Under the pieces are notes generated by a model. The model did no database searches. It was not told the origin of the DNA and saw only the letters and a list, made by a program, of their open reading frames with translations. Shown piece after piece: positions 12,037 to 45,019 of a stretch of DNA of 64,000 nt (its first letter is position 1; each line of letters begins with the position of its first letter). Made by a program: the position numbers and the translations under genes. The stretch comes from Legionellales bacterium. GTDB taxonomy: Bacteria; Pseudomonadota; Gammaproteobacteria; Comchoanobacterales; Comchoanobacteraceae. The DNA lies in assembly GCA_002690495.1 (NCBI GenBank), contig NZEV01000035.1, positions 10,310 to 74,309 of the forward strand, written 5' to 3'.

Positions 12037-14181
12037 ATGATAAAAAAAATTAAACCATGTTTATACAAAATATCCGGTGACCATCAGGTGGAACGCGAAT
12101 TTTCTGATGTTGATGCCCCTTGGTATTTACGCATGTGGGTTCTTTTTTTGTTCGACTGGTTTGGGAGTACAAGATGGTTAAACCAACTCTCAAAAAAACA
12201 AGCTATTGATCATTGTGTTAAACTTTCCCTTTTACACATTGAGTCAATTGAACAAAACCAACAACTCAAGACCATTTATGATCTACTCATATCATTTGAA
12301 GATCATTTTTCCGAACATCCATTTTTAAAATCATTTTGCGCTGCTTTCTTAATGTCTGAGTGTGTCACTTCAGCCTGTTATGAATCATATCTCATATTAA
12401 CGAATCATGTTGACCAAATCACCCAGAGTACTTTCCATCAAAAAAACCCCCATTTTTGTGACATTAAAGCCAATAGAGCCAATTTTCCATTAGTAGCTCA
12501 TTTAATTAATCAAGGCCATATACCTCAAAATTTCAAATCTTCCTCACTATTACCAGGATACGATATAGACAGAGAATTGATCAGATTTAATTTTATTTGG
12601 TCTATTGAGGTATTCTCATCAAATATTCCGTACCATTTTGGCAGAGAATTAATTCTCCTATTTCTAAAAACCAATGAAGATGATTTGCTGCACCAGTTAT
12701 TCAAAATATACCCAATGAGTTATGCAGCGTTAAATCATACTTTTGATTGCAATATTAATGGAGAAATGCAGAAACACAATATTTTATCATTATGTATTAT
12801 TTTTGGAAAATGGGATCTTGTTGGGCAAATTATTTCACATTGTGACCAAAGCACCATGATCGAATTTCCACGTATCAAGATTCCAGTGTTTCTCTTGTAT
12901 GCTGGTCGATTTGAATCAAGTCGCTTTGATCAAACGACACAGTCTAAGATAAAAACATACATCTCCGAGAATAAATATAAGTTTTATGATCCTCCCAATC
13001 AGGGTGATACTTATGTGATACAGGTTAATAAGCATGGCAATGATATAAAAATAGTTAAAATGCCCAAGCTATTCGCTTTATGCTATGATGGCCTGTATGA
13101 TATTGCATTTCAGCATTTAAAATTAAATTCAAGCATACTTTTTGAACAAGGTTATGATTTATATAGAGGAATACTCCAAAGAACGACTGATCAGAGTACA
13201 TATACTTTATATCGCTTTAATTATAGACCCTCTAATTGGTTAACCTCAGCACTCAAAATTTTATTAGATTCTTTACTTCAGTTCACAAGTCCAAATTTAG
13301 AGCCGAGGATAAATAGCGCTGAACAATTAGCTATTGAGATAATCAAAAACAATACCAAACTAAATATTTATAATTTAAATTGGTTATTAAGTCAGTATGA
13401 AATTGAATATAGTTTTAAAAATGCTGCTGAATCTCGTATTTACAAAACCATATTCATGTTTATTGCAGACCAATTAGATACCATCATTTTTGGCAATGAT
13501 AGCAGCACTGACCCAATAGATTCTCAAGCGGCCTTGGTCGAAATACATAATTTCCTTAATAAGGTCCGTCAATCTCCAAAGGCGCAACAAATGTTAGCTC
13601 ATTGTGCTCCTATCTTTGCTGCTTTTTATGATCTTAATCCATACTTAGACCTTCCGTTTTGTGACATCACAGAGTACGAAAAACTATGTCGTCATTGGAC
13701 TGCAGAAACAAAAATTGAAGATGTACACACTTTCCCCCAATTATTTGCACGCATGATGTCATCTGAGCTCAACGATGATACCCATTCGCAATGTGTTTCA
13801 AAAACCCAATTAAACAACCAGTATAATCTGGTCTTGTATCAAGTGTTGCGTCATCATAAATGGCAAATTCACTCATCCATCAACCAAATCATTTTATCTA
13901 GTAATCATGGATTAAGTCAGACCATAATCACCCATCTACTTCGTTTACCAAAAGAAATAGATCTAACCGGACTGTACGTACACTACTATCACAATCTCTC
14001 TCTTTATTGTCAAAATGAGCAAATTGGAAGGCATATTCATGGTTTTCTGTTTAGTGAAGACGCACTAGATCACAAGATCATGAGCCTCTTTAATTATGCA
14101 AAAATAAGATCTCACTCAAAAAAATTAATCAGAGATACCGCCAACAATGAGCAAAAGGAATTAGGGTGCCGGTGTTTTTAA
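12037..14181 (+). CDS. large orphan protein (714 aa), function unknown; candidate secreted effector
   Basis: Long uninterrupted ORF in an otherwise dense region. I recognise no catalytic motif. It is a helical, Cys/His/Gln-rich sequence ending ...NNEQKELGCRCF. Confidence 0.55.
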   Translation: MIKKIKPCLYKISGDHQVEREFSDVDAPWYLRMWVLFLFDWFGSTRWLNQLSKKQAIDHCVKLSLLHIESIEQNQQLKTIYDLLISFEDHFSEHPFLKSFCAAFLMSECVTSACYESYLILTNHVDQITQSTFHQKNPHFCDIKANRANFPLVAHLINQGHIPQNFKSSSLLPGYDIDRELIRFNFIWSIEVFSSNIPYHFGRELILLFLKTNEDDLLHQLFKIYPMSYAALNHTFDCNINGEMQKHNILSLCIIFGKWDLVGQIISHCDQSTMIEFPRIKIPVFLLYAGRFESSRFDQTTQSKIKTYISENKYKFYDPPNQGDTYVIQVNKHGNDIKIVKMPKLFALCYDGLYDIAFQHLKLNSSILFEQGYDLYRGILQRTTDQSTYTLYRFNYRPSNWLTSALKILLDSLLQFTSPNLEPRINSAEQLAIEIIKNNTKLNIYNLNWLLSQYEIEYSFKNAAESRIYKTIFMFIADQLDTIIFGNDSSTDPIDSQAALVEIHNFLNKVRQSPKAQQMLAHCAPIFAAFYDLNPYLDLPFCDITEYEKLCRHWTAETKIEDVHTFPQLFARMMSSELNDDTHSQCVSKTQLNNQYNLVLYQVLRHHKWQIHSSINQIILSSNHGLSQTIITHLLRLPKEIDLTGLYVHYYHNLSLYCQNEQIGRHIHGFLFSEDALDHKIMSLFNYAKIRSHSKKLIRDTANNEQKELGCRCF

Positions 14182-16761: not shown

Positions 16762-17991
16762 TTATTCCTTTGGTTTCCATTGAAGTGACATCTCCCCTTT
16801 CATATTGATTAGCTCAAACTGTGATGGTAAATCGACCACATTCAACAATGCACCAAGAGATTCAATTGTTTTAAGGGGCGTGTTGGTTAAAAATCCATCT
16901 ATTGATAAATCATGGTTGTTATAATCATAGCCTGTGAAAGTTGGTGTTTGGGGTAAGCCCCAATGAAATGACTGTGGAATATTGGCGTGGGTTGTGAGCC
17001 AAGACTCAGTATGATTGAAATCACCTGCAAAAATACAAGGCTGATATAAATGCTTTGCTTGAGGTGCAGTCAACCATTGGTCTACTAAGCTATGTCCAAC
17101 CCCAGGGTGATGCACGGAACCAACCTGAAGATCATAACCCAATAGATGTTTAAAGCGTGCGAATATCCATGGTTTGATGCTGTGATTTTCAAATTCAAGA
17201 TTACCACACACTGGATCTTCTAAAAGACCAAAATATGATGTGTGATAGCCAATAACAACATAATCTGCTTTATTTTCTTTTTGATGATAAATAAAACGAT
17301 GATCTGGAAATAACGAAAGTAATCGTTGAGGATCTGTACACTCTTGAAAACACAGAAATGACATTTGACGCATTCGTTTTAACAATTCAGGATGAGCTGA
17401 TGCTAAATGTTTCATTCGGTTTGAAAACTTCAGGACGCCCTGATCACTCAATATATGATAAGCTAATTCAATACTATGAAATAAGATCATTTTAAAGGTC
17501 TTTTGCAACCCATGCTCTTTATTTTTCATTAAATTAAATATGTTTTGTCTATCCTGAATCAGTGCTTTTTTATTATTGCTTAGACAACTTGAAGATTGGT
17601 GTACAAAAGCCTTAATCAGCTTTTGATCGATGATCATCGATGTAGGCTCATTCTGACGAATGTAATGTTCAAAGACAAACACACCGAAATCATATAAAAA
17701 AGCATATAATCTCAGATCCTGATGAGATGATTGATAAACAGAAAAACAAAACTCTGACCCTAATAGCTGTGCTTTAATTTCTTGATATTCTGGCAATAAG
17801 CACATTAAATAATGTAAATATTGATCAGATAATAAATTCCATGTGATGATATTGATCTCAACTCCTTTGGCTAAGCTGATTGAGCACATAACAGGGATAT
17901 GATCAGAGACACCTCGAATCATCCGAATGAGTTCCGGAGAAAATACTAATTGATCTTTAAAAGACTTAGACATGTAATCAGACCATTCCAA
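16762..17991 (-). CDS. orphan protein with endonuclease/exonuclease/phosphatase (EEP, DNase I-fold)-like motifs; candidate effector
   Basis: Ordered motifs: IITWNLL (aa ~50), LCFQECT (aa ~215), GSVHHPG, FAGDFNH (GDFN), SIDGF. The N-to-E spacing is about 160 aa, far longer than in canonical EEP enzymes, and a terminal SDH motif is not evident. Confidence 0.4.
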   Translation of the reverse strand: MEWSDYMSKSFKDQLVFSPELIRMIRGVSDHIPVMCSISLAKGVEINIITWNLLSDQYLHYLMCLLPEYQEIKAQLLGSEFCFSVYQSSHQDLRLYAFLYDFGVFVFEHYIRQNEPTSMIIDQKLIKAFVHQSSSCLSNNKKALIQDRQNIFNLMKNKEHGLQKTFKMILFHSIELAYHILSDQGVLKFSNRMKHLASAHPELLKRMRQMSFLCFQECTDPQRLLSLFPDHRFIYHQKENKADYVVIGYHTSYFGLLEDPVCGNLEFENHSIKPWIFARFKHLLGYDLQVGSVHHPGVGHSLVDQWLTAPQAKHLYQPCIFAGDFNHTESWLTTHANIPQSFHWGLPQTPTFTGYDYNNHDLSIDGFLTNTPLKTIESLGALLNVVDLPSQFELINMKGEMSLQWKPKE

Positions 17992-18082: not shown

Positions 18083-19132
18083 ATGACTAAGTCTTTAAGT
18101 AACGATGAGTATAAGATCCGCACTCATTTATCTGAGTTTCTTCCATTATGCGGTGTTACTTACTCTCCAACACTCGATCATCACGATGGAAAATTATACA
18201 CATACATCCACGATATCAGTGGATATATCTTAGATCAAAGTACAATGCTTGAGTTTCCAGCATTCTCACCAAATGTACAACGTTTTCGACATTTTCAATT
18301 ATTAGTCTTAACTCCGATTATTCATGGCTTACTCACGATTCCTGTTTCTTTATTTCGTATTTTTAAATTAATCCCCATATATTATGCCTTAACGAGTGAT
18401 GATTTCTCTACATTTAGTTACAGATATTTAAGAAATTTAATCAGACTGGTTGTCCGTCCATTGAACATTTTAATGATGTGCCTATCTAACCTTATTGGTT
18501 TAGTCATGCCAATGTATGGCGCAAGAATGTATGGTGCATGGGAAGCACTCGAAGTGGGGGCGCCTATCAATCCTAATGATTATAAGAAAAAACCTTTACA
18601 TTATCTTTTATTTAACCTTTCTGATATTGGCAGCCCGCATTATTTCCTAGGCATGTGTATGCAACCATGTAAAAAAATAGAAACGAATTTGCTAGCTCAA
18701 TTGCCTCGTTATACTAAACAATACCCACTTGGCACAAATCCTACAGGATGGTTATTTACTCAGCTTTTAATCCTGAATCTTATTGAACATAATTTGATTG
18801 AATTTAATGACAATGATAAAGAAGTTGTAATTTCTCGGCTCGGAAAAACAATACAATATTTAAAAGACATTCATAAATCTGTCTATACCGAGACCGATAA
18901 TCGTGATGAGCCCTGGCCATGTCAATTAGACAACTCTAGCCCTTTTTTATGGCTTATTCAACAAATTTGTATTGCTTATGTTTTTCCTATCACTTCATTG
19001 TCATGTAGAGATTTAAACTATGAACGTTCTTTAAAAGCATCTGAGCAGCCTAACAAAACACTCATCAAGACGCTCTATACACAACTAGAAGACTTAGAAC
19101 AAAAATCAAATACAAGAACCTGCAGTTTCTAA
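18083..19132 (+). CDS. orphan membrane-associated protein (349 aa), function unknown
   Basis: Two or three hydrophobic helices in the N-terminal half (FQLLVLTPIIHGLLTIPVSLF; ILMMCLSNLIGLVMPMY). No recognisable catalytic motif. The acidic stretch EDLEQ lies near the C-terminus. Confidence 0.5.
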   Translation: MTKSLSNDEYKIRTHLSEFLPLCGVTYSPTLDHHDGKLYTYIHDISGYILDQSTMLEFPAFSPNVQRFRHFQLLVLTPIIHGLLTIPVSLFRIFKLIPIYYALTSDDFSTFSYRYLRNLIRLVVRPLNILMMCLSNLIGLVMPMYGARMYGAWEALEVGAPINPNDYKKKPLHYLLFNLSDIGSPHYFLGMCMQPCKKIETNLLAQLPRYTKQYPLGTNPTGWLFTQLLILNLIEHNLIEFNDNDKEVVISRLGKTIQYLKDIHKSVYTETDNRDEPWPCQLDNSSPFLWLIQQICIAYVFPITSLSCRDLNYERSLKASEQPNKTLIKTLYTQLEDLEQKSNTRTCSF

Positions 19133-19906: not shown

Positions 19907-21346
19907 CTAACTCTTTTTAATCACTGGCATATCTTTTTGGCTTTCAATCTCAATACACTCTTGCACAATTTGATCTAATCGATTAGAAAAAAATCCACCT
20001 GAAGACGTTTTATTTAATTCTGTCAATTTTTCTACTTTGTTGTCATCATGACTGTCAATAATCTTGATTAATTCATTTATTTTATCCTGCTTTAATTCAA
20101 AGTTGCGCCACCCTTTCCAATTATCTTTTATAAGATTAGTAATCTTTTCACGCCATGGCTCTTGAGGATTGTCTTTTCTTAATCTACTGGACACATAGAG
20201 ACTTAAAATTTCTTTTTGCCTGCCTTGAGGACTCATTGAAGCGATGTCGATCGCATCATTAATGCTTTTTGCTAATGCTTCACTAGACATATCCGATTCA
20301 TGTGCGTAGGTAAACAACCATTTCTGAAATGCAGAAATCCACGTAGGGTTCTCGAAATCTGATTGTAATAGCTGTTTATTTGCGACTAGATTATCAATCT
20401 CTACCAATACACGCGCAATTTTATATGCATCTGTCCGATTAAAGAGATTAATATAATCCTCATTTGTATTGTAATCTTTACGCAGTAGACTCCCTCCTCC
20501 CCGTGAAATTGATGAGCGCTCAAAAGTCTCTTCTAAATCGAGAATATAAGTTTCTCCATTTTTGTCGACCATCACGTTAGACATATTTGCATCCATTAAA
20601 ACCCGCCCTGTTTTTGCATACAACTTAAAACATGCTGAGACCATCATATTGATAATCTCATTCTCTTCACGAACCCCGATAAGATCACTCACCTCCTGAC
20701 ACTGGACAAAAGGTAGTTTGAGATATTGACAACCACCTTGGACTTCGGCCTTTCCAAGCGCTCCGTTGATGCTATTCCATAATCTAGCTGATCTTTCTAA
20801 TCCCGAGCTGATCTTATCCTTAGAAAGTGCCTTCGGAATTCTTATCACATGTTGATCACCCTGAACCCAAGCAAATACACAATTATTTGTTCCTTGACCA
20901 AGATAATCATATTGACTAGCATCTAAATCCAATACCTCTGTTCCGTTTTCATTCAGCTTTTTGATCCTTCCGCTCTGCCTAAAAATTAAAGACGTCGAAT
21001 CTAAAGCAAATACTTCATCAAATGAACCCGATTCAAGGATGCTAAAAATTTTTGGATTCGTTACTTTGAAGACTAAATCTTTAAAAGTTGAAATCATATC
21101 CACATTATGAGATACAATCATTTTTTCCTTATCAAATTTTAGCACTTTCGCGCCTCGTTTAAACTTTTGATTGTTAAATACGACTCTACCCTGATTGACT
21201 GAAATCTTAATCCCATTGAGCTCCAATGGATTAGTAAAGGATGTAGGGCATGTAAGTGGACCAAATACACTCTGATGAATCGAAAGTAAAGGTTTGTTTG
21301 CTGTTTCTATTGTATAAAAAGGTGATTTGAATTGAATTGTATACAT
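19907..21346 (-). CDS. orphan protein with protein-kinase-like fold motifs; candidate effector kinase
   Basis: Motifs occur in kinase order: glycine loop LGQGTNNCVF (aa 149-158), VIRIPK (Lys172), ERSARLWN, catalytic-loop DANMSN (D252..N257, DxxxxN), and metal-binding YILDLEE (D270). The ~140-aa N-terminal and ~190-aa C-terminal regions have no recognisable domain. Confidence 0.45.
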   Translation of the reverse strand: MYTIQFKSPFYTIETANKPLLSIHQSVFGPLTCPTSFTNPLELNGIKISVNQGRVVFNNQKFKRGAKVLKFDKEKMIVSHNVDMISTFKDLVFKVTNPKIFSILESGSFDEVFALDSTSLIFRQSGRIKKLNENGTEVLDLDASQYDYLGQGTNNCVFAWVQGDQHVIRIPKALSKDKISSGLERSARLWNSINGALGKAEVQGGCQYLKLPFVQCQEVSDLIGVREENEIINMMVSACFKLYAKTGRVLMDANMSNVMVDKNGETYILDLEETFERSSISRGGGSLLRKDYNTNEDYINLFNRTDAYKIARVLVEIDNLVANKQLLQSDFENPTWISAFQKWLFTYAHESDMSSEALAKSINDAIDIASMSPQGRQKEILSLYVSSRLRKDNPQEPWREKITNLIKDNWKGWRNFELKQDKINELIKIIDSHDDNKVEKLTELNKTSSGGFFSNRLDQIVQECIEIESQKDMPVIKKS

Positions 21347-21394: not shown

Positions 21395-22339
21395 TTATTG
21401 TCGTAAATTGCTTCTCCTCTCTTCTCTAGACATGGATGAAAGTGTATCTGCAAGACCGTTGATATTATCTTTAATTTTAACTAACCTTGATGGTTTTAAT
21501 TGAGATAATCCGAAAATTGACTTTGGAATAGCTTCCAATGCTTGATTCATTGCTGTTTTTTCATATGTTGGACTGTTGACAATAGTCCACATTGATTGCA
21601 TCACTTTAAATTTTTTTTCCTTTACTCCCTTAGGGCATGACCCTTTCATAATACATTCCACATCTAACACTGTACACTGCACTTTTTTTGATTGCAGATA
21701 CTCTGTGAATTCATTTGTTAACAATGTTTTTAACTGATCTTGAGGTGAATCGGATTTGAAAGAATAAACCTCATTACCACTCACTGAAGTTGTGCCTATT
21801 TTTGTTAATTCGCGTAGAGCGGCTACTTTTTGGTTTCTCATACATGCCCTGATAAAACCGAGTGTTGGCATCTTCCCTGTCTTCGCTGATAATTCATACA
21901 TAAACCTTGTGATGACTTGGAATCGCTTAGTATTCTGTTGATTTTGTGGAAATAGAGCGATCCATGGCTGATATACTGTTATAGTGTTGGCTAGGTTTTT
22001 ATTTGGGCAATTTTTCCAATTAAGATCACACTTTACCTCTTGTAAAAATCTTGCCCGATTTTCTGGATTAGCTTCAGATATCTGCTTACCTAAACTGAGC
22101 AACTTCCCTAATACATATTCTACATCCTCAGCTTTCATCTTGTCTTCGGATACCTCCCTATAAGCCAACTTAATCGCTTTCTTATACGCATCGGGTCTCT
22201 TTATACACTGCTCGTCAACAAACTGATTCACTACTGTCTGTTGGTCCTTATCATTGTAGAAGTCTAAATAATGTTTGGGGCTAATGACTTCTCCATTTGA
22301 TTGGAGATCACCTAAATACTTTTCAAAACTTTGTGCCAT
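21395..22339 (-). CDS. orphan protein (314 aa), function unknown; upstream partner of the kinase-like ORF
   Basis: Long ORF on the same strand, ending 48 nt upstream of the kinase-like ORF. No recognisable motif. Confidence 0.5.
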   Translation of the reverse strand: MAQSFEKYLGDLQSNGEVISPKHYLDFYNDKDQQTVVNQFVDEQCIKRPDAYKKAIKLAYREVSEDKMKAEDVEYVLGKLLSLGKQISEANPENRARFLQEVKCDLNWKNCPNKNLANTITVYQPWIALFPQNQQNTKRFQVITRFMYELSAKTGKMPTLGFIRACMRNQKVAALRELTKIGTTSVSGNEVYSFKSDSPQDQLKTLLTNEFTEYLQSKKVQCTVLDVECIMKGSCPKGVKEKKFKVMQSMWTIVNSPTYEKTAMNQALEAIPKSIFGLSQLKPSRLVKIKDNINGLADTLSSMSREERRSNLRQ

Positions 22340-22538: not shown

Positions 22539-22574
22539 TTGTTAATATCTATAGGTAATGGACTGTTGATATGA
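22539..22574 (+). promoter_or_regulatory. candidate 11-codon leader ORF (TTG start) behind a strong Shine-Dalgarno, stop overlapping the start of the downstream gene
   Basis: AGGAGGAG (22527-22534) is followed 4 nt later by TTG. The frame reads LLISIGNGLLI, then TGA at 22572-22574 overlaps ATG 22571-22573 (ATGA). The main ORF has no SD of its own and cannot be extended upstream, because of an in-frame TAA at 22556-22558. Confidence 0.25.
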
Positions 22575-23890
22575 AACTTAAAATGACTGTTTTTCTTCAA
22601 TCCCTCATTGTAATCGTGTTTGGCTTGGTCTCAGCTTTTTGTCAGATTAGTTATACTCATATCCTGACACGATTTCTCTCTTTGGATCTCTATGGTGATT
22701 TTACTGTGGCATGGAACAGTATACTATTGATTTCCTCCGTCGTTGTGTTTGGATCAGACCTTACGACTCAACGCTTTTTATCTTTTTATCAAATACATCA
22801 TAATCATCAAAAAAAACACGATCTGATCTATTGGGTATTAACCACTCTACTTCAATCAAGTATGATACTTGCCTGCACTTACATGCTCTTTTGGCTCATC
22901 GCCTCTATTTTCCATATCTCATTAATATACCAATTTGATAGCTGGCACCTTGCAATGTTTACGGTCATTTTAGCACCTTTTTATGCCGTTTTTTTGATTG
23001 CCAATAGTCTGATTATGGGATATGGATATATACTTTTGGCTACATTTTTAAAAACAGTATTTCTAAACGGCATACAACTGATTGTGATTTACAGCTTTTT
23101 CAATCTGGTAGATCTCCATGGTGTCACAGGGTTGTCCTCTTTGATCATGTGTATCCTTGTCACAATCATGCTCATCAATACTCTAATTACCTTGCTCATT
23201 CCTAATAATGAAATTTTCCGATCGCTCTTTACTCAACAAGCTCACGATCACCAAGACAAACAATGGCCTTCCCTATCGCGAGGATTTTTTATCAACACCG
23301 TCAATTATATGCTTGTTACAACGATGGATCTTTACATTATAGAAGTATTTTGCCCAAAAGAAGGATTAGTAGGACTGTATTCTATTTGTCTCAGCATGAT
23401 CTCCATTTTATTCATTCTCAATGCTTCTCTTAGCAACCAATTAAGAAACGATATCATGAATATTAAAGACATGAACCAAAAACAATTAAAGCAACTGCAA
23501 AAATCATTAGACATATATAATCTCATGAAACTCATCTTATTAATCCTTGCTGTAGGGATTTCATGGTCTTTCAGAGCAGCTATATTTTCATTTTTTCATG
23601 TTCAAACCACCTACGCATATCTATTATTGCCGCTGATGTTCTTCAGCTGCTATCTACAAGATGATGCTTATCCATTTGCTTATCTAATGGCCAACGGACA
23701 ATCTTATTTTGTCGAAAAAACCAGATTCATTGCAACGATAATCATGAGTCTTACTGGCACTATACTTGTTTTTCCATTGAATATTTATGGTGTTGCTCTG
23801 GCAACTATGATTGCCCGAATATTCACACGGGTCAAATTCATTAGACGTTACCAATCAATGTGTAAAATACGCTTTTATAGCGTTATATAA
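22571..23890 (+). CDS. polytopic membrane protein, Wzx/MOP-superfamily (polysaccharide-biosynthesis/flippase-like)
   Basis: 439 aa with about 12-14 TM segments. The N-terminal pattern ILTRFLSLDLYGDFTVAWNSILLIS...FGSDL..QRF resembles oligosaccharide flippases. It is a clear paralogue of 62045-63364. Confidence 0.55.
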   Translation: MKLKMTVFLQSLIVIVFGLVSAFCQISYTHILTRFLSLDLYGDFTVAWNSILLISSVVVFGSDLTTQRFLSFYQIHHNHQKKHDLIYWVLTTLLQSSMILACTYMLFWLIASIFHISLIYQFDSWHLAMFTVILAPFYAVFLIANSLIMGYGYILLATFLKTVFLNGIQLIVIYSFFNLVDLHGVTGLSSLIMCILVTIMLINTLITLLIPNNEIFRSLFTQQAHDHQDKQWPSLSRGFFINTVNYMLVTTMDLYIIEVFCPKEGLVGLYSICLSMISILFILNASLSNQLRNDIMNIKDMNQKQLKQLQKSLDIYNLMKLILLILAVGISWSFRAAIFSFFHVQTTYAYLLLPLMFFSCYLQDDAYPFAYLMANGQSYFVEKTRFIATIIMSLTGTILVFPLNIYGVALATMIARIFTRVKFIRRYQSMCKIRFYSVI

Positions 23891-23934: not shown

Positions 23935-24495
23935 ATGAATGAAACACATCCAAACACCTCACATTTTCCTTGGGAAATCACCACAATACATTTTTTTCAT
24001 AAAGGAAAAGCACATCATGCTTTAATTGATCTACAGACCTATTACAGCTATACCTATTTAGACGATCAAATGCGACAACATAAATTCATTTGGCTAATAT
24101 TCACATTACCTCTTCTAGAATTAATACTCATCGTGCCATCTGTGATGACCCTCTTGAAAAAACGACATCAAGTCCATTTAACTTTTCATACTATGATATA
24201 TCCAATCATGATATTTGGGATGTGGTTTTCTGCATTCTATGGCCTCTTTGATCCTCAACGTGCTATGATTTTATTCAGTCGGTTTGAAGCATCAGCACGC
24301 AATGTCCCTCAAAAGCTAGAAGATAGACCTCATCCACATGAACACTTTTTTGGTCGAATTTTAATGAATGAGCCTTTAAAACCATTTTATTTTATTGCCC
24401 CATGTTTACAGCCAAGAAAAGTCATTAATCAAGACTGGTTGTATCATTATTCATCTGGGAATCCAACTAACTGCCCAATTTTTAAACACAAATGA
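23935..24495 (+). CDS. orphan small membrane protein (186 aa)
   Basis: Two hydrophobic helices (FIWLIFTLPLLELILIVPSVM; IYPIMIFGMWFSAFYGLF). No recognisable motif. Confidence 0.45.
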   Translation: MNETHPNTSHFPWEITTIHFFHKGKAHHALIDLQTYYSYTYLDDQMRQHKFIWLIFTLPLLELILIVPSVMTLLKKRHQVHLTFHTMIYPIMIFGMWFSAFYGLFDPQRAMILFSRFEASARNVPQKLEDRPHPHEHFFGRILMNEPLKPFYFIAPCLQPRKVINQDWLYHYSSGNPTNCPIFKHK

Positions 24496-37978: not shown

Positions 37979-38794
37979 CTATTTTCTTTCCCTTACTCCT
38001 AAATGAGAGGATCCAATAAGATCGACTAAAACGATATGGGGTACTGTTAAAGCAAATAAACCGACAAAAATCAAAGGGACTAATGCATGGTATTGCATTA
38101 AATGATGGTTTAAAAACCAATAACCTGTCATCCCAGACAGCCACACTACACCACATGTTACAATCAATAAATATTTATTTTCTCTTAATAGGCCAGGATT
38201 TTTTCTCAATAATGTATGTATATGCCTAGGCGCATGATAACCGCAAAAATAGATTAAAAACGACCATATTGGGGGGAGTACAACAACGACTAATAAAGTC
38301 AGAAGAAAAATACAATGTTCATTATCTAAATGTTCTTTCCACGCACACTTAAAATATCGACACAAACACAAAATCCATACACAAGCTGCTAATCTGAGTA
38401 TCATTTCAAATGTGACTATATGGTTAAAAACCAATTGTTGAACAATAGGGCTTACTGCTTTCCAATGAATTAATGGTAACACAATTGTAATTAATCCCCC
38501 TGTTGCCACAATTTGAGACCATTCACGAAAGTGTTTTAATCGTCCATAATCTCCAAAATGTAAGGTAGAAATCAAAAAAAACAACACCATCATGATAAAC
38601 GGAAATATCCACCATAAATACACCACAGCACCGACCAAGAGCAGATAGGAGACCACTAGCGTCACCCATAACCCAAATGACTGTTTTGGATACAAACGAG
38701 TGGCAATTTGTTTTAAAAACACAATATCAAAGACACCATGAGGTACTCCGAAAATTAAAATCACCCAAAATGCAATAATCATTTCAATCTGCAT
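37979..38794 (-). CDS. blh: Brp/Blh family beta-carotene 15,15'-dioxygenase (retinal-forming)
   Basis: 271 aa polytopic protein with the four His-containing Blh blocks: FGVPHGVFD, LISTLHFGD, YFCGYHAPRH, FALTVPHIVLVD. Confidence 0.88.
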   Translation of the reverse strand: MQIEMIIAFWVILIFGVPHGVFDIVFLKQIATRLYPKQSFGLWVTLVVSYLLLVGAVVYLWWIFPFIMMVLFFLISTLHFGDYGRLKHFREWSQIVATGGLITIVLPLIHWKAVSPIVQQLVFNHIVTFEMILRLAACVWILCLCRYFKCAWKEHLDNEHCIFLLTLLVVVVLPPIWSFLIYFCGYHAPRHIHTLLRKNPGLLRENKYLLIVTCGVVWLSGMTGYWFLNHHLMQYHALVPLIFVGLFALTVPHIVLVDLIGSSHLGVRERK

Positions 38795-38798
38795 TAGC

Positions 38799-39893
38799 TC
38801 ACCATAACCAAGTTTTTATAAATAACCCCTTCGGCATTGACAAAATCGCCTTGATGATTGAACGAACATGATGACCAATCATAAAGCGGACGAAATAAGG
38901 ATGCCCTAGTTGTTTCATCAACCCCATCAAAATTGCTGGCATTTGCCTTGGGTATCGAGACAACACCTTCAAAAACAACCGATCTAACCAGTTTAACCAA
39001 AATGGGATCACTTTGACAGATCGAATCCGTTTTCCAGATAGTAGATTCAAGAGCAACTGTTCGATTTGGGCTTGTAATCCAAGAAATGCGTAGCCTGTGG
39101 ATAAGCGCATACATTGCCCCGATAAGCCGATCTTTGGAATAGATTGATCGACTGGTTGTGAGTACATTGGGATGATCCCTTCTTCTTCATATTCAATGCG
39201 ACAATCACTTAATGCTAAGTGTAAATGTTTTTTTAACCATTGACAGATCATCTCAAGATAATGTTCTTTGTGTTTACGATAATGCGAAAAATAGGTCGCC
39301 TCTACAAGCAATGTTCGTGGACTCAATGGCAAGACATAGATAAAACAAAATGCATCATCTAAAGGTAGTGTAAAATCCATTAGCCGAACAGTATCATGCG
39401 AAGGATAATCGCTGGGGAGCTCTAGACATAATCCCATAAAATGTTGTTGCATGAGGCCATCTTGAATGGGTTTAGAACGGGTATCGATCACCTGTTTAGC
39501 CAAAAAGACGCCTGAAGCAGTGTCTATTTGATAATGTGATTCACACGCTTCAATATGTAATACTTTTAATATATGACGATGAACTTGAGAGGCTTGTTGG
39601 ATTTGGTGCTCAATATGCTGTTTAAGTGCGAGTCCATTCATTGATCGGTAGACCCAGTCCTGAGACTCATGTACCACTGCATGTGAACTACATTGCATTG
39701 ACCACTTATGCCAAGTTTGATGTACATACTGATGATACCAATGTGTTTGTCCTTTTGGCTCCCAAAATGAAATGGTTTGTGGGCGTTGATCCTCTGGCCC
39801 AATCACTAAAATATGCCGTGTTTCGTGATCTAATAAACGCTTTGCTAGACTCAATCCAGAGATGCCTGCACCTACAATCGCGATATCAAACAT
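38799..39893 (-). CDS. crtY: lycopene beta-cyclase (CrtY type)
   Basis: N-terminal FAD fold DIAIVGAGISGLSLA, a CrtY-type FCFIYVLPLSP segment, and position between crtB and blh. Confidence 0.8.
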   Translation of the reverse strand: MFDIAIVGAGISGLSLAKRLLDHETRHILVIGPEDQRPQTISFWEPKGQTHWYHQYVHQTWHKWSMQCSSHAVVHESQDWVYRSMNGLALKQHIEHQIQQASQVHRHILKVLHIEACESHYQIDTASGVFLAKQVIDTRSKPIQDGLMQQHFMGLCLELPSDYPSHDTVRLMDFTLPLDDAFCFIYVLPLSPRTLLVEATYFSHYRKHKEHYLEMICQWLKKHLHLALSDCRIEYEEEGIIPMYSQPVDQSIPKIGLSGQCMRLSTGYAFLGLQAQIEQLLLNLLSGKRIRSVKVIPFWLNWLDRLFLKVLSRYPRQMPAILMGLMKQLGHPYFVRFMIGHHVRSIIKAILSMPKGLFIKTWLW

Positions 39894-40773
39894 AAGGTAA
39901 GTGTGCTAGTGGACGATGTAAATCAGCATCATGTGGACGAACCTTTAGCTTAACATACTGAATAGGTAAATCGATGATGGTCATTTTTAATTTCTCGAGG
40001 GATGAAATCATCACCCGACCTTGTTGCCAAGCGCACTGTTTTGACAACAAACGATGTCCAATCTTTTGATATAATAGACCTGCCAAAAGCATAGTACGTC
40101 TACTTTTAGGAGGTAAATAACCAAGCCCATTAAACCCTGATTGATAATATTGATCAGCTAATGCCAACAAGCGCCTTATATTTTGGCGCACTTTGAGGTC
40201 AATACAAGAAATGGGGTGTTTTTTCACTGCTCTAATATTCCCTGCAGATACATGGGGGATTGGTAAATAGCGTCGATCTTGATCGGCATCCTCTAAGACA
40301 TCGCGACAAATATTCGTGATTTGCATAGCGATCCCAAGATCAATGGCATGTTTATATGCTTTCTTTGATTTTGCACCTAATATTGGGCACATCATGATCC
40401 CTACCGTACCAGCAACGTGATAGGCATATCTGAGCAAGGCCTCTTGGCTTTCTATGACGACCTTTTTTGTATCCTGGATCACACCCTCAACGAGTGTTTT
40501 TGTCACTTCTGGAGACCAATGATATTCTTGGGATAATCGTTTAAAATCTCTGACCAAAGGTGACATAGATACAGTTTCCTGATGGCTTAACGAATTTTTA
40601 ATTGCTGCCAACTGATCCTCATAATCTGGTGGTTTTTGATCTGCTAAATCATCAATATGTCGACAAAATTGATACAATCTTGCAGCATCTAAGCTTGATT
40701 TTCGATCAAGAAAGGGCCGAGCCCAGTTAAAACTTTTTCCAAATTGAGCTAATACTTTAAAACATTCAAGCAT
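39886..40773 (-). CDS. crtB: phytoene synthase
   Basis: SFNWARPFL...LYQFCRHIDDLAD (first Asp-rich box) and ITNICRDVLEDADQDRRYLP (second box) are squalene/phytoene synthase signatures. Confidence 0.9.
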   Translation of the reverse strand: MLECFKVLAQFGKSFNWARPFLDRKSSLDAARLYQFCRHIDDLADQKPPDYEDQLAAIKNSLSHQETVSMSPLVRDFKRLSQEYHWSPEVTKTLVEGVIQDTKKVVIESQEALLRYAYHVAGTVGIMMCPILGAKSKKAYKHAIDLGIAMQITNICRDVLEDADQDRRYLPIPHVSAGNIRAVKKHPISCIDLKVRQNIRRLLALADQYYQSGFNGLGYLPPKSRRTMLLAGLLYQKIGHRLLSKQCAWQQGRVMISSLEKLKMTIIDLPIQYVKLKVRPHDADLHRPLAHLPYV

Positions 40774-42262
40774 GGGCGAGTGCTCCTTGGGTGGTTTGAT
40801 ACTGTCTGACTAATTTTTCAACTACTTTTGCAGAAGAAACCACACCTGGTAGTCCTGCACCAGGGTGTGTTCCAGCACCTGCAAAGAATAAATTCTTGAT
40901 TGAAGGATCCTGATTATGAAATCTGAAATATGCAGATTGTGTCAAAATTGGTGCAATAGAAAATCCAGCCCCATAAGTACTTAAATAATCTGTTTGAAAA
41001 TCCTCCGGGGTCATCCAAAAAGACGCCTCAATATGTGATTTTAATTGTGGTAGTATTGTTTGATCTAAAGCGTCGATGATCTTTGTTTTAAGTCGTGGTG
41101 CTTCATGTTCCCAATCTACCTTCCCCAAAAGGTTTGGAACTGGACATAACACATAAAACGAGTCACAACCTTGAGGTGCAAATGAGGGATCAGTGGCTGT
41201 TGGACGATGAATATACAATGAGAAATCATCTGCTAAAATCTTTTTATGGAAAATGTCATGCAGTAACGTCTTGTACCGGTGCCCCATCCATATGGTATGA
41301 TGTGCCACCTCTGGCCACTGTTTTGTCGCTCCAAAAAATAATACATACAAACCCATAGAAAACTGAGTGAATTGATCCGGTCGACGAAAAAATTGCCTAG
41401 GTAATTTAGGAAGTAAATGTTGATAAGCAAACGCAGGATCCCCATTAAAGACCATTAAATCACAACTATGAACATGTCCATTTTGATCAATCCATCCAAC
41501 CACTTTATTTTGTTTGACTTGAATCTGTTTCACTTCTTGTTGAAGTTGAATCGTCACCCCCACTTTCAACATCAATTTTTTGAATGCTGCGACTAAGGCT
41601 CCAGTACCTCCCATACAAAAATGAATACCCCATTTTCTTTCTAGAAAGTGAATTAGTGTGTATATTGATGTGGTATCAAATGGATTACCACCCACTAATA
41701 GTGAATGAATACTTAAAGCTTGGCGTAATGAAGGATGTTGAATATAAGTGGCAATTAACTGATACACTGTTTTATAGCTTTGTAACCGAATCAGGCTAGG
41801 TACTTGCTTGACCATGGTACTCAGGGTATTGAAAGGGACATCTGCCAGTTGGGTAAATCCTACATTAAAGATCTTCTCAGACATTGCAACAAGCTTGGCA
41901 TACCCTGCAACATCGTCTTTACAAAACTGACCAATCTCCTCTTCAAATGCCTTTAAATCTGCTTGATACCTAAATGTTCGACCATCTGAAAAATAAAAGT
42001 CATACCATGTTTGCAAGGGTACAATTTGGGCATAATCTTCAATACGTTCATCAAACAAAGCGAATAGTTCTTCGAATAAAAAAGGCGCCGTTAATACTGT
42101 GGGACCTGCATCATGTTTGTACCCACCTCGATGAAAAACACGCGCTCGTCCTCCTAATTGATCTAACCGATCAATGAGCGTCACGTGATATCCAAGTCCT
42201 TTAAGACGCAATGCACTGGCAATACCACCAAAACCCGCACCCACTACTACTGCATGTTTCAA
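40766..42262 (-). CDS. crtI: phytoene desaturase (CrtI type)
   Basis: AVVVGAGFGGIASALRL dinucleotide fold and the C-terminal bacterial-type desaturase signature NLFFAGAGTHPGAGLPGV. Confidence 0.9.
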   Translation of the reverse strand: MKHAVVVGAGFGGIASALRLKGLGYHVTLIDRLDQLGGRARVFHRGGYKHDAGPTVLTAPFLFEELFALFDERIEDYAQIVPLQTWYDFYFSDGRTFRYQADLKAFEEEIGQFCKDDVAGYAKLVAMSEKIFNVGFTQLADVPFNTLSTMVKQVPSLIRLQSYKTVYQLIATYIQHPSLRQALSIHSLLVGGNPFDTTSIYTLIHFLERKWGIHFCMGGTGALVAAFKKLMLKVGVTIQLQQEVKQIQVKQNKVVGWIDQNGHVHSCDLMVFNGDPAFAYQHLLPKLPRQFFRRPDQFTQFSMGLYVLFFGATKQWPEVAHHTIWMGHRYKTLLHDIFHKKILADDFSLYIHRPTATDPSFAPQGCDSFYVLCPVPNLLGKVDWEHEAPRLKTKIIDALDQTILPQLKSHIEASFWMTPEDFQTDYLSTYGAGFSIAPILTQSAYFRFHNQDPSIKNLFFAGAGTHPGAGLPGVVSSAKVVEKLVRQYQTTQGALAHA

Positions 42263-42421: not shown

Positions 42422-45019
42422 TTATAACTTACCACAACATCGTTTATATTTTTTTCCAGAACCACATGGACAAGTAGCATTTCTAGCTATTTTTTCTTTT
42501 TTTTTTGGCTCTTGAACCGCCGGAATATCAAAGACAGGCTTTGGTATTTCATCGACTATCGTAATGGTGCATAATTTTGAAATTACTTCGTATTTAATAT
42601 TTTTGAGTAATTGTTTGAATAACTCAAATGCTTCTATCTTAAATTCATGAATTGGGTTTTTCTGAGCATACCCTCTAAAGTGAATACCCTGTCTTAAATG
42701 ATCAATTCTTGCCAAATGATCCTTCCATTGCTCATCAAGAACACGCAATAACACCGAACGCTCTAGCTCTTTCACTAAATCTTCGTTTGACTGATTAATT
42801 TTCATTTGATGAATCAACATGAAGCGATCGACTAAAGATGAGATGATAGTTTCATTAGATACTTGTTGATCAACCCATACTTGAGCGTCTTCACTCAATT
42901 GAAAATCTTTTTTCAAACGCGACTCCAAACCTTGGATGTCCCATTGCTCTACTGGCAGATCTTTTACAAAAGACTCGTTCACTAAGTCTGTAAATACAGT
43001 CTTAGCTTGCGATTGAATTACATCTGAAACATCATCTAATCGCATTAGCTCATCTCTTTGTTCGTAAATCAATAGCCTTTGTTCATTCGCGATATTATCA
43101 AACTGCAAAAGCTGTTTTCGAATATCATAATGATGTCCCTCTACTTTACGTTGTGCTTTCTCAATGATGCGATTAAACCAAGGATGTTCTAGTGGTTCAT
43201 CCTCTTTCATACCTGCTTTTTGCATCACGCTCGCAGTCATATCTGTTGCAAAAATGCGCATTAACGAATCATCTAAACTTAAATAAAACCTAGAAGCACC
43301 AGGATCACCTTGTCGACCTGATCGCCCACGTAACTGATTATCAATTCGCCTTGATTCATGCCGCTCTGTTCCCAAAACATACAAGCCACCTACAGCTTTT
43401 ACATCTGCCTGCTGTTTAGCAAAGGTCTCTTTGAGTTGCTTGATTTTTTCAGGATCTGTCAGTTTCATTTTATTCACTGCAAAATTCGCATTACCACCTA
43501 AAATGATATCTGTTCCACGACCCGCCATGTTCGTTGCAATTGTGACTGCATTTGGACACCCTGCTTGAGCAATGATTTCTGCTTCTTCGGCATGATATTT
43601 AGCATTTAAAACTTGGTGTTTAATCTTTTTGTCTTTTAATAACTTCGATAATAACTCTGAATTTTCAATGGAGGTGGTCCCGACTAAAACGGGTTGTCCA
43701 GTTTTTTGCTTTTCAATGATGTCCTCAACAATTTTTTGATATTTCATATTTTTAGTCAAATACAACATGTCCGTACCATCTTTTCGAATCACGGGTTTAT
43801 TTGTTGGGATGACAACAACCTCTAAATTATAAATTTGATGGAGTTCAACCGCTTCAGTATCTGCTGTTCCAGTCATCCCTGAGAGTTTCTTATACATTAA
43901 GAAATAGTTTTGGAAAGTAATTGAGGCCAACGTTTGATTTTCATTTTGAATTTTAACACCCTCTTTTGCCTCAATCGCCTGATGTAATCCATCTGACCAA
44001 CGTCTTCCAGGCATGGCTCGACCAGTATGCTCATCAATAATCACGACTTGATTATCATAAACAATATAATCAACATCTCGACGATACATAAACTGTGCTC
44101 TCAGTGATGCTTGTACGTAATGGAGTAAATTAATATTCTCTTGAGAAAATAATGAATCTTCGGACTTCAGAATCCCTTGTTTTCTCAAACGGGCTTCCAT
44201 TTTGGTATGTCCATCATCAGTTAAAAAGACCTGTTTCTCTTTCTCACTTAATGTGTAGTGACCTGGTTGATGCTCTTTTTCCTCTTTTAAATCCTTCACT
44301 AATGGAAAAATTTGACGATATAATGTTGAGCTGTCTGTAATCTCACCAGAAATAATTAAAGGTGTTCTTGCTTCATCAATGAGGATAGAATCAACCTCAT
44401 CAATAATGGCATAACTATGTCCACGCTGTACCTTCGCCTCAAGTGTTGGAGACATATTATCTCTTAAATAGTCAAAACCAAATTCATTATTTGTCCCATA
44501 GGTGATATCTGCTTGATAGGCTTTTTGACGCTCTTCCTGTGGCATATCGGTATAGATCACACCAGTAGATAATCCTAAGAACCGATAAATCTGCCCCATC
44601 CACTCATTGTCTCTTTGAGCAAGATAACTATTGACTGTCACTACGTGCACACCCTGGCCAGATAATGCATTTAAATAACATGGTAAAGTGGAAGTCAGTG
44701 TTTTACCTTCACCTGTAGACATCTCCGCAATTTTACCATGATGTAAGGCCAAGCCACCCAAAATCTGAACATCATAATGTCGCTCTTTGAGTACTCGTTT
44801 CGCTGTCTCTCTCACTACCGCAAATGCTTCTGGTAATATCTCATCGAGTGTTTGCCCTGATTGTACTCGTTCTTTGAATTCTACAGTCTTTTGTTGAAGC
44901 GCGTCATCACTTAAAGCAGACACTTTTTCTTCAAATGAATTGACCTGAGCCAATATTTGACGGTATTGTTTAATTAGGCGGTCATTTCTTGATCCAAGTA
45001 ATTTTTGAAGTAATCGCAT
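42422..45019 (-). CDS. secA: preprotein translocase ATPase SecA
   Basis: 865 aa. MSTGEGKTL (Walker A), DEVDSILIDEARTPLIISG (DEAD-like), TNMAGRGTDI, and the C-terminal zinc motif CPCGSGKKYKRCCG. Confidence 0.97.
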   Translation of the reverse strand: MRLLQKLLGSRNDRLIKQYRQILAQVNSFEEKVSALSDDALQQKTVEFKERVQSGQTLDEILPEAFAVVRETAKRVLKERHYDVQILGGLALHHGKIAEMSTGEGKTLTSTLPCYLNALSGQGVHVVTVNSYLAQRDNEWMGQIYRFLGLSTGVIYTDMPQEERQKAYQADITYGTNNEFGFDYLRDNMSPTLEAKVQRGHSYAIIDEVDSILIDEARTPLIISGEITDSSTLYRQIFPLVKDLKEEKEHQPGHYTLSEKEKQVFLTDDGHTKMEARLRKQGILKSEDSLFSQENINLLHYVQASLRAQFMYRRDVDYIVYDNQVVIIDEHTGRAMPGRRWSDGLHQAIEAKEGVKIQNENQTLASITFQNYFLMYKKLSGMTGTADTEAVELHQIYNLEVVVIPTNKPVIRKDGTDMLYLTKNMKYQKIVEDIIEKQKTGQPVLVGTTSIENSELLSKLLKDKKIKHQVLNAKYHAEEAEIIAQAGCPNAVTIATNMAGRGTDIILGGNANFAVNKMKLTDPEKIKQLKETFAKQQADVKAVGGLYVLGTERHESRRIDNQLRGRSGRQGDPGASRFYLSLDDSLMRIFATDMTASVMQKAGMKEDEPLEHPWFNRIIEKAQRKVEGHHYDIRKQLLQFDNIANEQRLLIYEQRDELMRLDDVSDVIQSQAKTVFTDLVNESFVKDLPVEQWDIQGLESRLKKDFQLSEDAQVWVDQQVSNETIISSLVDRFMLIHQMKINQSNEDLVKELERSVLLRVLDEQWKDHLARIDHLRQGIHFRGYAQKNPIHEFKIEAFELFKQLLKNIKYEVISKLCTITIVDEIPKPVFDIPAVQEPKKKEKIARNATCPCGSGKKYKRCCGKL

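Follow-up and report, generated by a model that had tools for sequence, protein, structure and literature searches.

Among the described systems closest to the one considered here is the marine proteorhodopsin (PR) cluster, in which an opsin gene is accompanied by crtE, crtI, crtB, crtY and blh, and often by idi. A Blh enzyme has been characterised biochemically from the uncultured marine bacterium 66A03 (Q4PNI0). Rhodopsins are also frequent in the order UBA7916, named Candidatus Comchoanobacterales by Needham et al. 2022 (PMC9418006), the genomes of which NCBI places in Legionellales/Coxiellaceae: rhodopsins with the DTE motif and glutamine at position 105 were reported in 17 of 20 UBA7916 genomes, and the supplementary tables of that study hold no per-genome listing of rhodopsin or retinal genes. 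Finally, ChoanoVirus, which is associated with marine heterotrophic protists, carries four adjacent genes for beta-carotene synthesis and Blh together with rhodopsins (PMC6789865). Here, we describe a crtI-crtB-crtY-blh operon located in a 64-kb stretch of contig NZEV01000035.1 (hereafter the window), which an initial annotation had presented as a complete beta-carotene-to-retinal operon without an opsin. Based on our observations, we suggest that this operon is very probably the chromophore half of an ordinary PR photosystem in a marine gammaproteobacterium, with catalytic activities, end product and proton transport predicted from the sequences.

The four genes occupy the minus strand (Table 1) and are packed exactly as first annotated: crtI and crtB overlap by 8 nt (40766-40773), as do crtB and crtY (39886-39893), and a gap of 4 nt (38795-38798) separates crtY from blh. 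The first gene of the operon, crtI, lies 159 nt downstream of secA, and its product matches TIGR02734 over the full length, with an NAD_binding_8 domain at residues 6-72 that corresponds to the N-terminal flavin adenine dinucleotide-binding fold. CrtB and CrtY both exceed the family-level Pfam cut-offs; their proposed functions follow from family membership together with operon context, which in the case of CrtB is the position of the gene between crtI and crtY. The four reading frames constitute a real and intact operon leading through lycopene and beta-carotene to a predicted retinal product.

The system resembles the marine PR cluster in several respects, i.e. the order crtI-crtB-crtY-blh with overlapping or abutting frames, the proximity of idi, the possession of a DTE-motif PR and a CrtI sequence nested among those of such clusters. 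It differs in that the opsin of the species is not adjacent but lies 24.6 kb away (see below), and in that the cassette is devoid of crtE and abuts a mevalonate operon. The likeness to the ChoanoVirus pathway is one of gene content, as the latter is viral and is accompanied by other rhodopsin types.

The absence of an opsin from the window, noted initially, was confirmed. A tblastn search with PR and bacteriorhodopsin sequences (threshold E<=10) produced no match in the 64 kb, and five of the six open reading frames (ORFs) with at least four hydrophobic segments in a hydropathy scan represent non-opsin families (MarC, Na/Ala symporter, TerC, Polysacc_synt-like and Blh). The sixth, a 439-aa ORF with 11 segments (22571-23890), was rejected as an opsin because it is too long and has no Pfam match. 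When the identical search was applied to 80 blh loci of other genomes, namely that of the single-amplified genome (SAG) CACKTD01 and 79 others, all obtained by a Blh scan of genome contigs, 65 proved to have an opsin no more than 10 kb away.

The region to the right of the window was reached through a 107-aa rhodanese encoded in the window (58746-59069), the counterparts of which were located on a Tara scaffold (scaffold_214; locus L104) and a SAG contig (locus L105), and 10 kb were read on each side. Window positions 63000-64000 match both loci at 1000 of 1001 nt, which fixes the coordinate offset (window = locus + 48745). These two independent assemblies of the same species encode an identical PR of 231 aa about 2.9 kb past the right end of the window, on the strand of the crt operon, at the above-mentioned distance from the crtI start codon. 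The protein is 54% identical to green PR and retains the residues of the DTE proton-pump motif, the counter-ion and the Schiff-base lysine, along with the glutamine of blue-absorbing variants (Table 1). It is the rhodopsin type described for UBA7916 by Needham et al. (PMC9418006). None of the adjacent genes has a link to carotenoids; the opsin gene is flanked by a T2SSE-type ATPase gene with small unknown ORFs and, on the opposite side, by putA.

An ordinary PR gene is therefore present just beyond the window, on the same contig as the operon in both assemblies, in agreement with the option, already raised by the initial annotation, that an opsin might be encoded elsewhere; a PR gene in such a place was also what that annotation had itself named as refuting its reading. 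An opsin-less retinal pathway in a Legionella-like bacterium would, if true, have hinted at a non-photic role of retinal, but since the opsin merely lies outside the 64-kb frame, this reading fails. More exotic roles suggested for the product (a host-directed retinoid or a membrane modifier) are not required by the data. The frequency of rhodopsins among the UBA7916 genomes (PMC9418006) contradicts the expectation that light-driven physiology would be out of place in such bacteria; the organism itself derives from Tara Oceans and other marine metagenomes.

In the proposed scheme, the adjoining mevalonate operon and idi would supply isopentenyl diphosphate and dimethylallyl diphosphate, and geranylgeranyl diphosphate (GGPP) would be made by a GGPP synthase encoded elsewhere. 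CrtB would then convert GGPP to phytoene, CrtI phytoene to lycopene and CrtY lycopene to beta-carotene, which the membrane-located Blh would cut at the 15,15' bond, giving two molecules of all-trans-retinal. The retinal would bind Lys213 of the blue-absorbing, DTE-motif, proton-pumping PR.

Several points weigh against this interpretation. The scores of CrtY and CrtB are below the NCBIfam equivalog cut-offs: the divergent CrtY reaches 54-76 bits (cut-offs 209-215), and the top NCBIfam matches of CrtB are CrtB models at 137 bits (cut-offs 480-500), with HpnD near at 132 bits. The operon, termed complete in the initial annotation, does have its four genes intact, but neither the cluster, the rest of the window nor its near flanks yielded a crtE gene for a GGPP synthase, and none of the ORFs of the window contains a polyprenyl_synt domain. 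The operon was present in none of the RNA or metatranscriptome runs screened. The opsin sequence itself derives from two further assemblies of the species, from which its presence on the contig of the window is strongly inferred. In addition, opsin and operon are separated by about 20 genes, distributed over both strands, and are therefore not co-transcribed. A scan for promoters and terminators near the operon gave counts at chance level (23 promoter-like sites versus 22.3 expected, and 2 terminator-like sites versus 4.0 expected).

The likely identity of the organism was traced through SecA. A protein (P0037) that is 100% identical, at the reported precision, to SecA of the window is encoded on CACFQT010000001.1, a 130.6-kb single-cell contig, where crtI lies next to secA as in the window; SecA, Blh and CrtI of the window are all approximately 100% identical to those of this SAG (CACFQT01), with which the last kilobase of the window (see L105 above) also agrees at 1000 of 1001 nt. 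The supplementary data of Needham et al. (PMC9418006) assign CACFQT01 to o__UBA7916; f__GCA-002691585; g__GCA-002691585; s__sp002690495. The identity to this SAG points to GTDB species GCA-002691585 sp002690495 of the order UBA7916 (Ca. Comchoanobacterales) as the source of the window. The next neighbours in the SecA search are 66-68% identical, and beyond them come various Gammaproteobacteria with values near 57%. An identical Blh is encoded on TARA_SAMEA2619531_METAG-scaffold_214 (97.7 kb) and in several further marine assemblies, and up to 98% of the operon 31-mers are present in marine metagenome runs. Runs labelled as cold seep (X4, X12 and X17) contain 40-78% of the operon words, so the species or its close relatives are not limited to samples labelled plainly as marine metagenome.

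The organism is a marine, probably protist-associated gammaproteobacterium. The window contains two adjacent ORFs, each with a short WipA-like phosphatase domain (Table 1), candidate secreted effectors that would support a host-associated lifestyle of the Legionellales kind. Together with the probable placement in Ca. Comchoanobacterales, these ORFs uphold the earlier description of the organism as a host-associated Legionellales type. It would belong to the same GTDB order as the choanoflagellate-associated Comchoanobacter and Synchoanobacter (Comchoano-1 and -2; PMC9418006), with which it shares a low GC content (about 38-42%), blue-tuned DTE proteorhodopsins and Legionellales-type signatures of host association. 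Unlike Comchoano-1 and -2, which lack the whole retinal pathway, GCA-002691585 encodes crtIBY-blh.

One alternative is that retinal or another apocarotenoid is mainly exported for a rhodopsin of the host or for those of co-resident symbionts or viruses devoid of retinal synthesis, with the PR of the producer as a secondary user. In its favour, Comchoano-1 and -2, having rhodopsins without a retinal pathway, were proposed to scavenge the chromophore (PMC9418006), choanoflagellates do not synthesize carotenoids (PMC6789865), the order is host-associated and the window contains the Dot/Icm-effector-like ORFs mentioned above. However, a cognate PR with all functional residues on the same contig fully explains the pathway, the operon has no linked gene for an exporter or a binding protein, and the GCA-002691585 family has no known host. 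We consider such export very improbable. We also see only a slim chance that retinal of GCA-002691585 could, besides its own PR, supply rhodopsins in a protist host, or in symbionts or viruses residing alongside and unable to make the chromophore, the cassette then being a tradeable 'chromophore supply' module gained or lost according to lifestyle.

A second alternative to a PR photosystem is that the operon serves chiefly for carotenoid pigmentation or photoprotection and that the Blh-like protein has a role other than retinal formation, e.g. in stress or salt tolerance. A brp/blh-family homologue from a gut metagenome is reported to have a salt-tolerance phenotype (PMC4110020), the opsin is not adjacent to the operon, and Blh is at most 41% identical to any protein outside its own species. 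The sequence of Blh nevertheless places it in the Brp/Blh dioxygenase family. Its translation contains all four motifs named in the initial annotation (GVPHGVFD, TLHFGD, YFCGYHAPRH and LTVPHIVLVD), and the match to TIGR03753 passes the trusted cut-off and spans profile positions 1-260 of 260. H19, H79, H187 and H253 are invariant in an alignment of 16 Blh sequences (that of the window and 15 homologues), and in the close clade H191 is conserved without exception. For Blh of 66A03, His21, 78, 188, 192, plus His256, have been proposed as iron-site residues (bioRxiv 10.64898/2026.08.06.743266); by motif and position they match H19, H79, H187, H191 and H253, so that all five candidate ligands are kept.

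A hydropathy scan of Blh revealed eight hydrophobic stretches, some of them overlapping. An AlphaFold2 model built from the 16-sequence alignment (mean predicted local distance difference test score 80.7) is devoid of strands and contains 11 helical elements, some of them short, and agrees with the polytopic helical membrane fold of about nine helices described for Blh. No related solved structure was found for Blh, nor for the 432-aa ORF downstream of it. In its profile matches (TIGR03753 and PF15461), its iron-site histidines and its multi-helix membrane character the protein thus resembles the enzyme of 66A03; its identity to PR-linked Blh proteins from other marine Gammaproteobacteria, to which 66A03 belongs and which served as comparators in its place, is only about 30%. 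Moreover, blh follows crtY in the tight translational packing also seen in the classical clusters L089, L096 and L100, and the genome contains a PR that requires retinal. A mainly pigment-related role is, in our opinion, doubtful in the extreme, and the assignment of Blh to the chromophore pathway of the PR is preferred.

The same gene arrangement, with crt(I)BY-blh convergent to the mevalonate genes MK-MVD-PMK-HMGR (for mevalonate kinase, diphosphomevalonate decarboxylase, phosphomevalonate kinase and HMG-CoA reductase, respectively), was observed at three further loci. These are L008 (SAG CACKTD01, of the GTDB family of the window), with identities to the window of 34% for Blh, 66% for CrtI, 58% for MK and 56% for HMGR; L090 (a Tara scaffold; Blh 39%, MK 68%); and L094 (contig MDTB01075983; Blh 41%, MK 71%), the one informative locus among 10 obtained by scanning Joint Genome Institute metagenomes with Blh. 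The conservation of this arrangement despite a Blh identity of only 34-41% indicates functional constraint.

More distant relatives (L091-L093; identities to the window of 66-67% for SecA, 75% for FtsZ, 38-40% for MK and 45% for HMGR) retain the backbone trx-rho-cysS-uvrD-ftsQAZ-lpxC-orf-secA, followed by MK-MVD-PMK-HMGR and idi-ECH-DnaJ, but the crtIBY-blh cassette is absent from their secA/MK junction. In L091, MK begins 87 nt after secA (L091:12614-12700), and crt and blh genes are lacking. The comparison defines crtIBY-blh as a clean four-gene indel at the secA/MK junction, reflecting either ancestral gain or loss elsewhere. GC content, both overall and at third codon positions (GC3), of crtI, crtB, crtY and blh falls inside the distribution of the genes of the window, and cassette and backbone have diverged in step, as seen from the values for L008. 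The cassette is therefore not recent, given in-step divergence in at least three lineages and its typical GC and GC3. Any transfer would have been ancient, and loss in the cassette-less relatives is equally possible.

In a CrtI tree (neighbour-joining, no bootstrap), the sequence of the window pairs with that of L008 and is nested in the CrtI sequences of classical clusters of marine Gammaproteobacteria (L009, L014, L026, L072, L077 and L089), in which the opsin is transcribed divergently from crtEIBY-blh. This suggests that the cassette may have descended from a classical PR cluster, minus the opsin and crtE. A recent horizontal acquisition of the cassette, or a binning or assembly chimera foreign to the genome, to which its absence at the exact junction in L091-L093 and the grouping of CrtI with other marine Gammaproteobacteria might point, is essentially refuted by the occurrence of the secA-crtI and blh-mevalonate junctions in the SAG contig, the Tara scaffold, further assemblies and contigs of four metagenome runs, by the ordinary base composition of the cassette genes, and by the parallel divergence of cassette and backbone, and we regard it as highly improbable.

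Table 1. Features of the window and of its right flank (window coordinates unless stated otherwise), with the profile matches or equivalent residues on which they rest
Feature	Position	Strand	Evidence or equivalence
crtI, phytoene desaturase, 498 aa, TTG start	40766-42262	-	TIGR02734 544.6 bits (cut-off 238.1); PF01593
crtB, phytoene synthase, 295 aa	39886-40773	-	PF00494 170.9 bits
crtY, lycopene beta-cyclase, 364 aa	38799-39893	-	PF05834 119.1 bits
blh, Brp/Blh beta-carotene 15,15'-dioxygenase, 271 aa	37979-38794	-	TIGR03753 127.6 bits (cut-off 95.25); PF15461 99.7 bits (cut-off 28)
Proteorhodopsin, 231 aa	L104 and L105 18147-18842 (window-equivalent 66892-67587)	-	PF01036 151.7 bits
D79, T83, E90 of the 231-aa opsin			PR D97, T101, E108; DTE proton-pump motif
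Q87 of the 231-aa opsin			PR position 105; blue-absorbing variant
D209 of the 231-aa opsin			PR D227; counter-ion
K213 of the 231-aa opsin			PR K231; Schiff-base lysine
432-aa lineage-specific ORF	36665-37963	-	Weak ABC1 kinase-like match, E 0.001
Mevalonate kinase	35790-36668	+	TIGR00549 140.1 bits
Diphosphomevalonate decarboxylase	34858-35793	+	TIGR01240 153.6 bits
Putative phosphomevalonate kinase, 283 aa	34053-34904	+	Conserved position; no Pfam or NCBIfam match
HMG-CoA reductase	32813-34060	+	TIGR00532 274.9 bits
idi, type-1 isopentenyl-diphosphate isomerase, 181 aa	32104-32649	-	NF002995 151.1 bits (cut-off 127); TIGR02150 119.8 bits (cut-off 105.8)
WipA-like phosphatase-domain ORF, 486 aa	28912-30372	-	PF21663; NF043030 'Dot/Icm T4SS effector Wip' below cut-off
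WipA-like phosphatase-domain ORF, 559 aa	27074-28753	-	PF21663; NF043030 'Dot/Icm T4SS effector Wip' below cut-off

The cassette is also maintained at the population level. Contigs from four metagenome runs that cover the operon contain no frameshifts and no joints that skip the cassette (run X1 is metagenome-like and identical to X2). Among the single-nucleotide polymorphisms (SNPs) listed, beside which there are 18 further differences, all three in crtI and both in crtB are synonymous; crtY has five synonymous and six non-synonymous SNPs, five of the latter in residues 105-115. In three metagenome runs the contig depth rises to 240-600x at 44236-44672, inside secA, with many loose ends and short 'skips', most likely as a result of cross-mapping of other organisms onto a highly conserved motor segment of SecA (90% likeness) rather than as a property of this genome.

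The mevalonate operon (32813-36668, plus strand) is convergent with the crt-blh operon. The position of its 283-aa ORF is kept in L008, L091 and L094, and this ORF presumably encodes a very divergent PMK. Just left of window position 1 lies a gene for a 318-aa polyprenyl diphosphate synthase (L007:7052-8008), the last codons of which enter the start of the window; it adjoins a rubredoxin-reductase-like gene and xseB. Its best profile scores are those of long-chain synthases, and its FARM context, 'ATLLHDDVID', is typical of long-chain IspB-type enzymes. The gene was rejected as the lacking crtE because of this resemblance to long-chain IspB, and probably encodes a ubiquinone side-chain synthase.

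Between blh and MK, 15 nt downstream of the former, the window contains the 432-aa ORF, which bears a kinase-like motif ('HDENFLYD...LIDFG'). Its sole homologue among 5.8 billion proteins is that of its own species, and L008, L090 and L094 have no counterpart of it between blh and MK; it stands outside the conserved cassette. It evolves rapidly at the population level, the listed variation comprising five non-synonymous and two synonymous SNPs and an in-frame 9-nt deletion at 37917. The ORF may be co-transcribed with the operon, and may represent a lineage-specific effector inserted into the operon tail.

Further to the left, several ORFs of 186-714 aa have no Pfam family at all (12037-14181, 18083-19132, 19907-21346, 21395-22339 and 23935-24495), and near this run a 409-aa ORF (16762-17991) has only a weak endonuclease/exonuclease/phosphatase match. 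Orphan ORFs typically accumulate to this extent where Legionellales-like genomes are rich in effectors. The 439-aa ORF at 22571-23890 is similar in its N-terminus to another ORF of 439 aa (62045-63364; 13 segments, weak Polysacc_synt match, flippase-like), and the two may be paralogues.

The richness of Ca. Comchoanobacterales in rhodopsins was already known. Our modest addition is a family that appears to be autonomous for retinal and has a discrete cassette beside its mevalonate operon; the case also illustrates that absence from a window is weak evidence of absence from a genome. The GCA-002691585 family should be able to make its own retinal, provided that GGPP can be made. Since the order comprises retinal-dependent members, which have a rhodopsin and no pathway, alongside one or more families that encode crtIBY-blh themselves, its members, although host-associated as a group, differ in chromophore autonomy, a trait that can be scored by one defined indel between secA and the mevalonate kinase gene.

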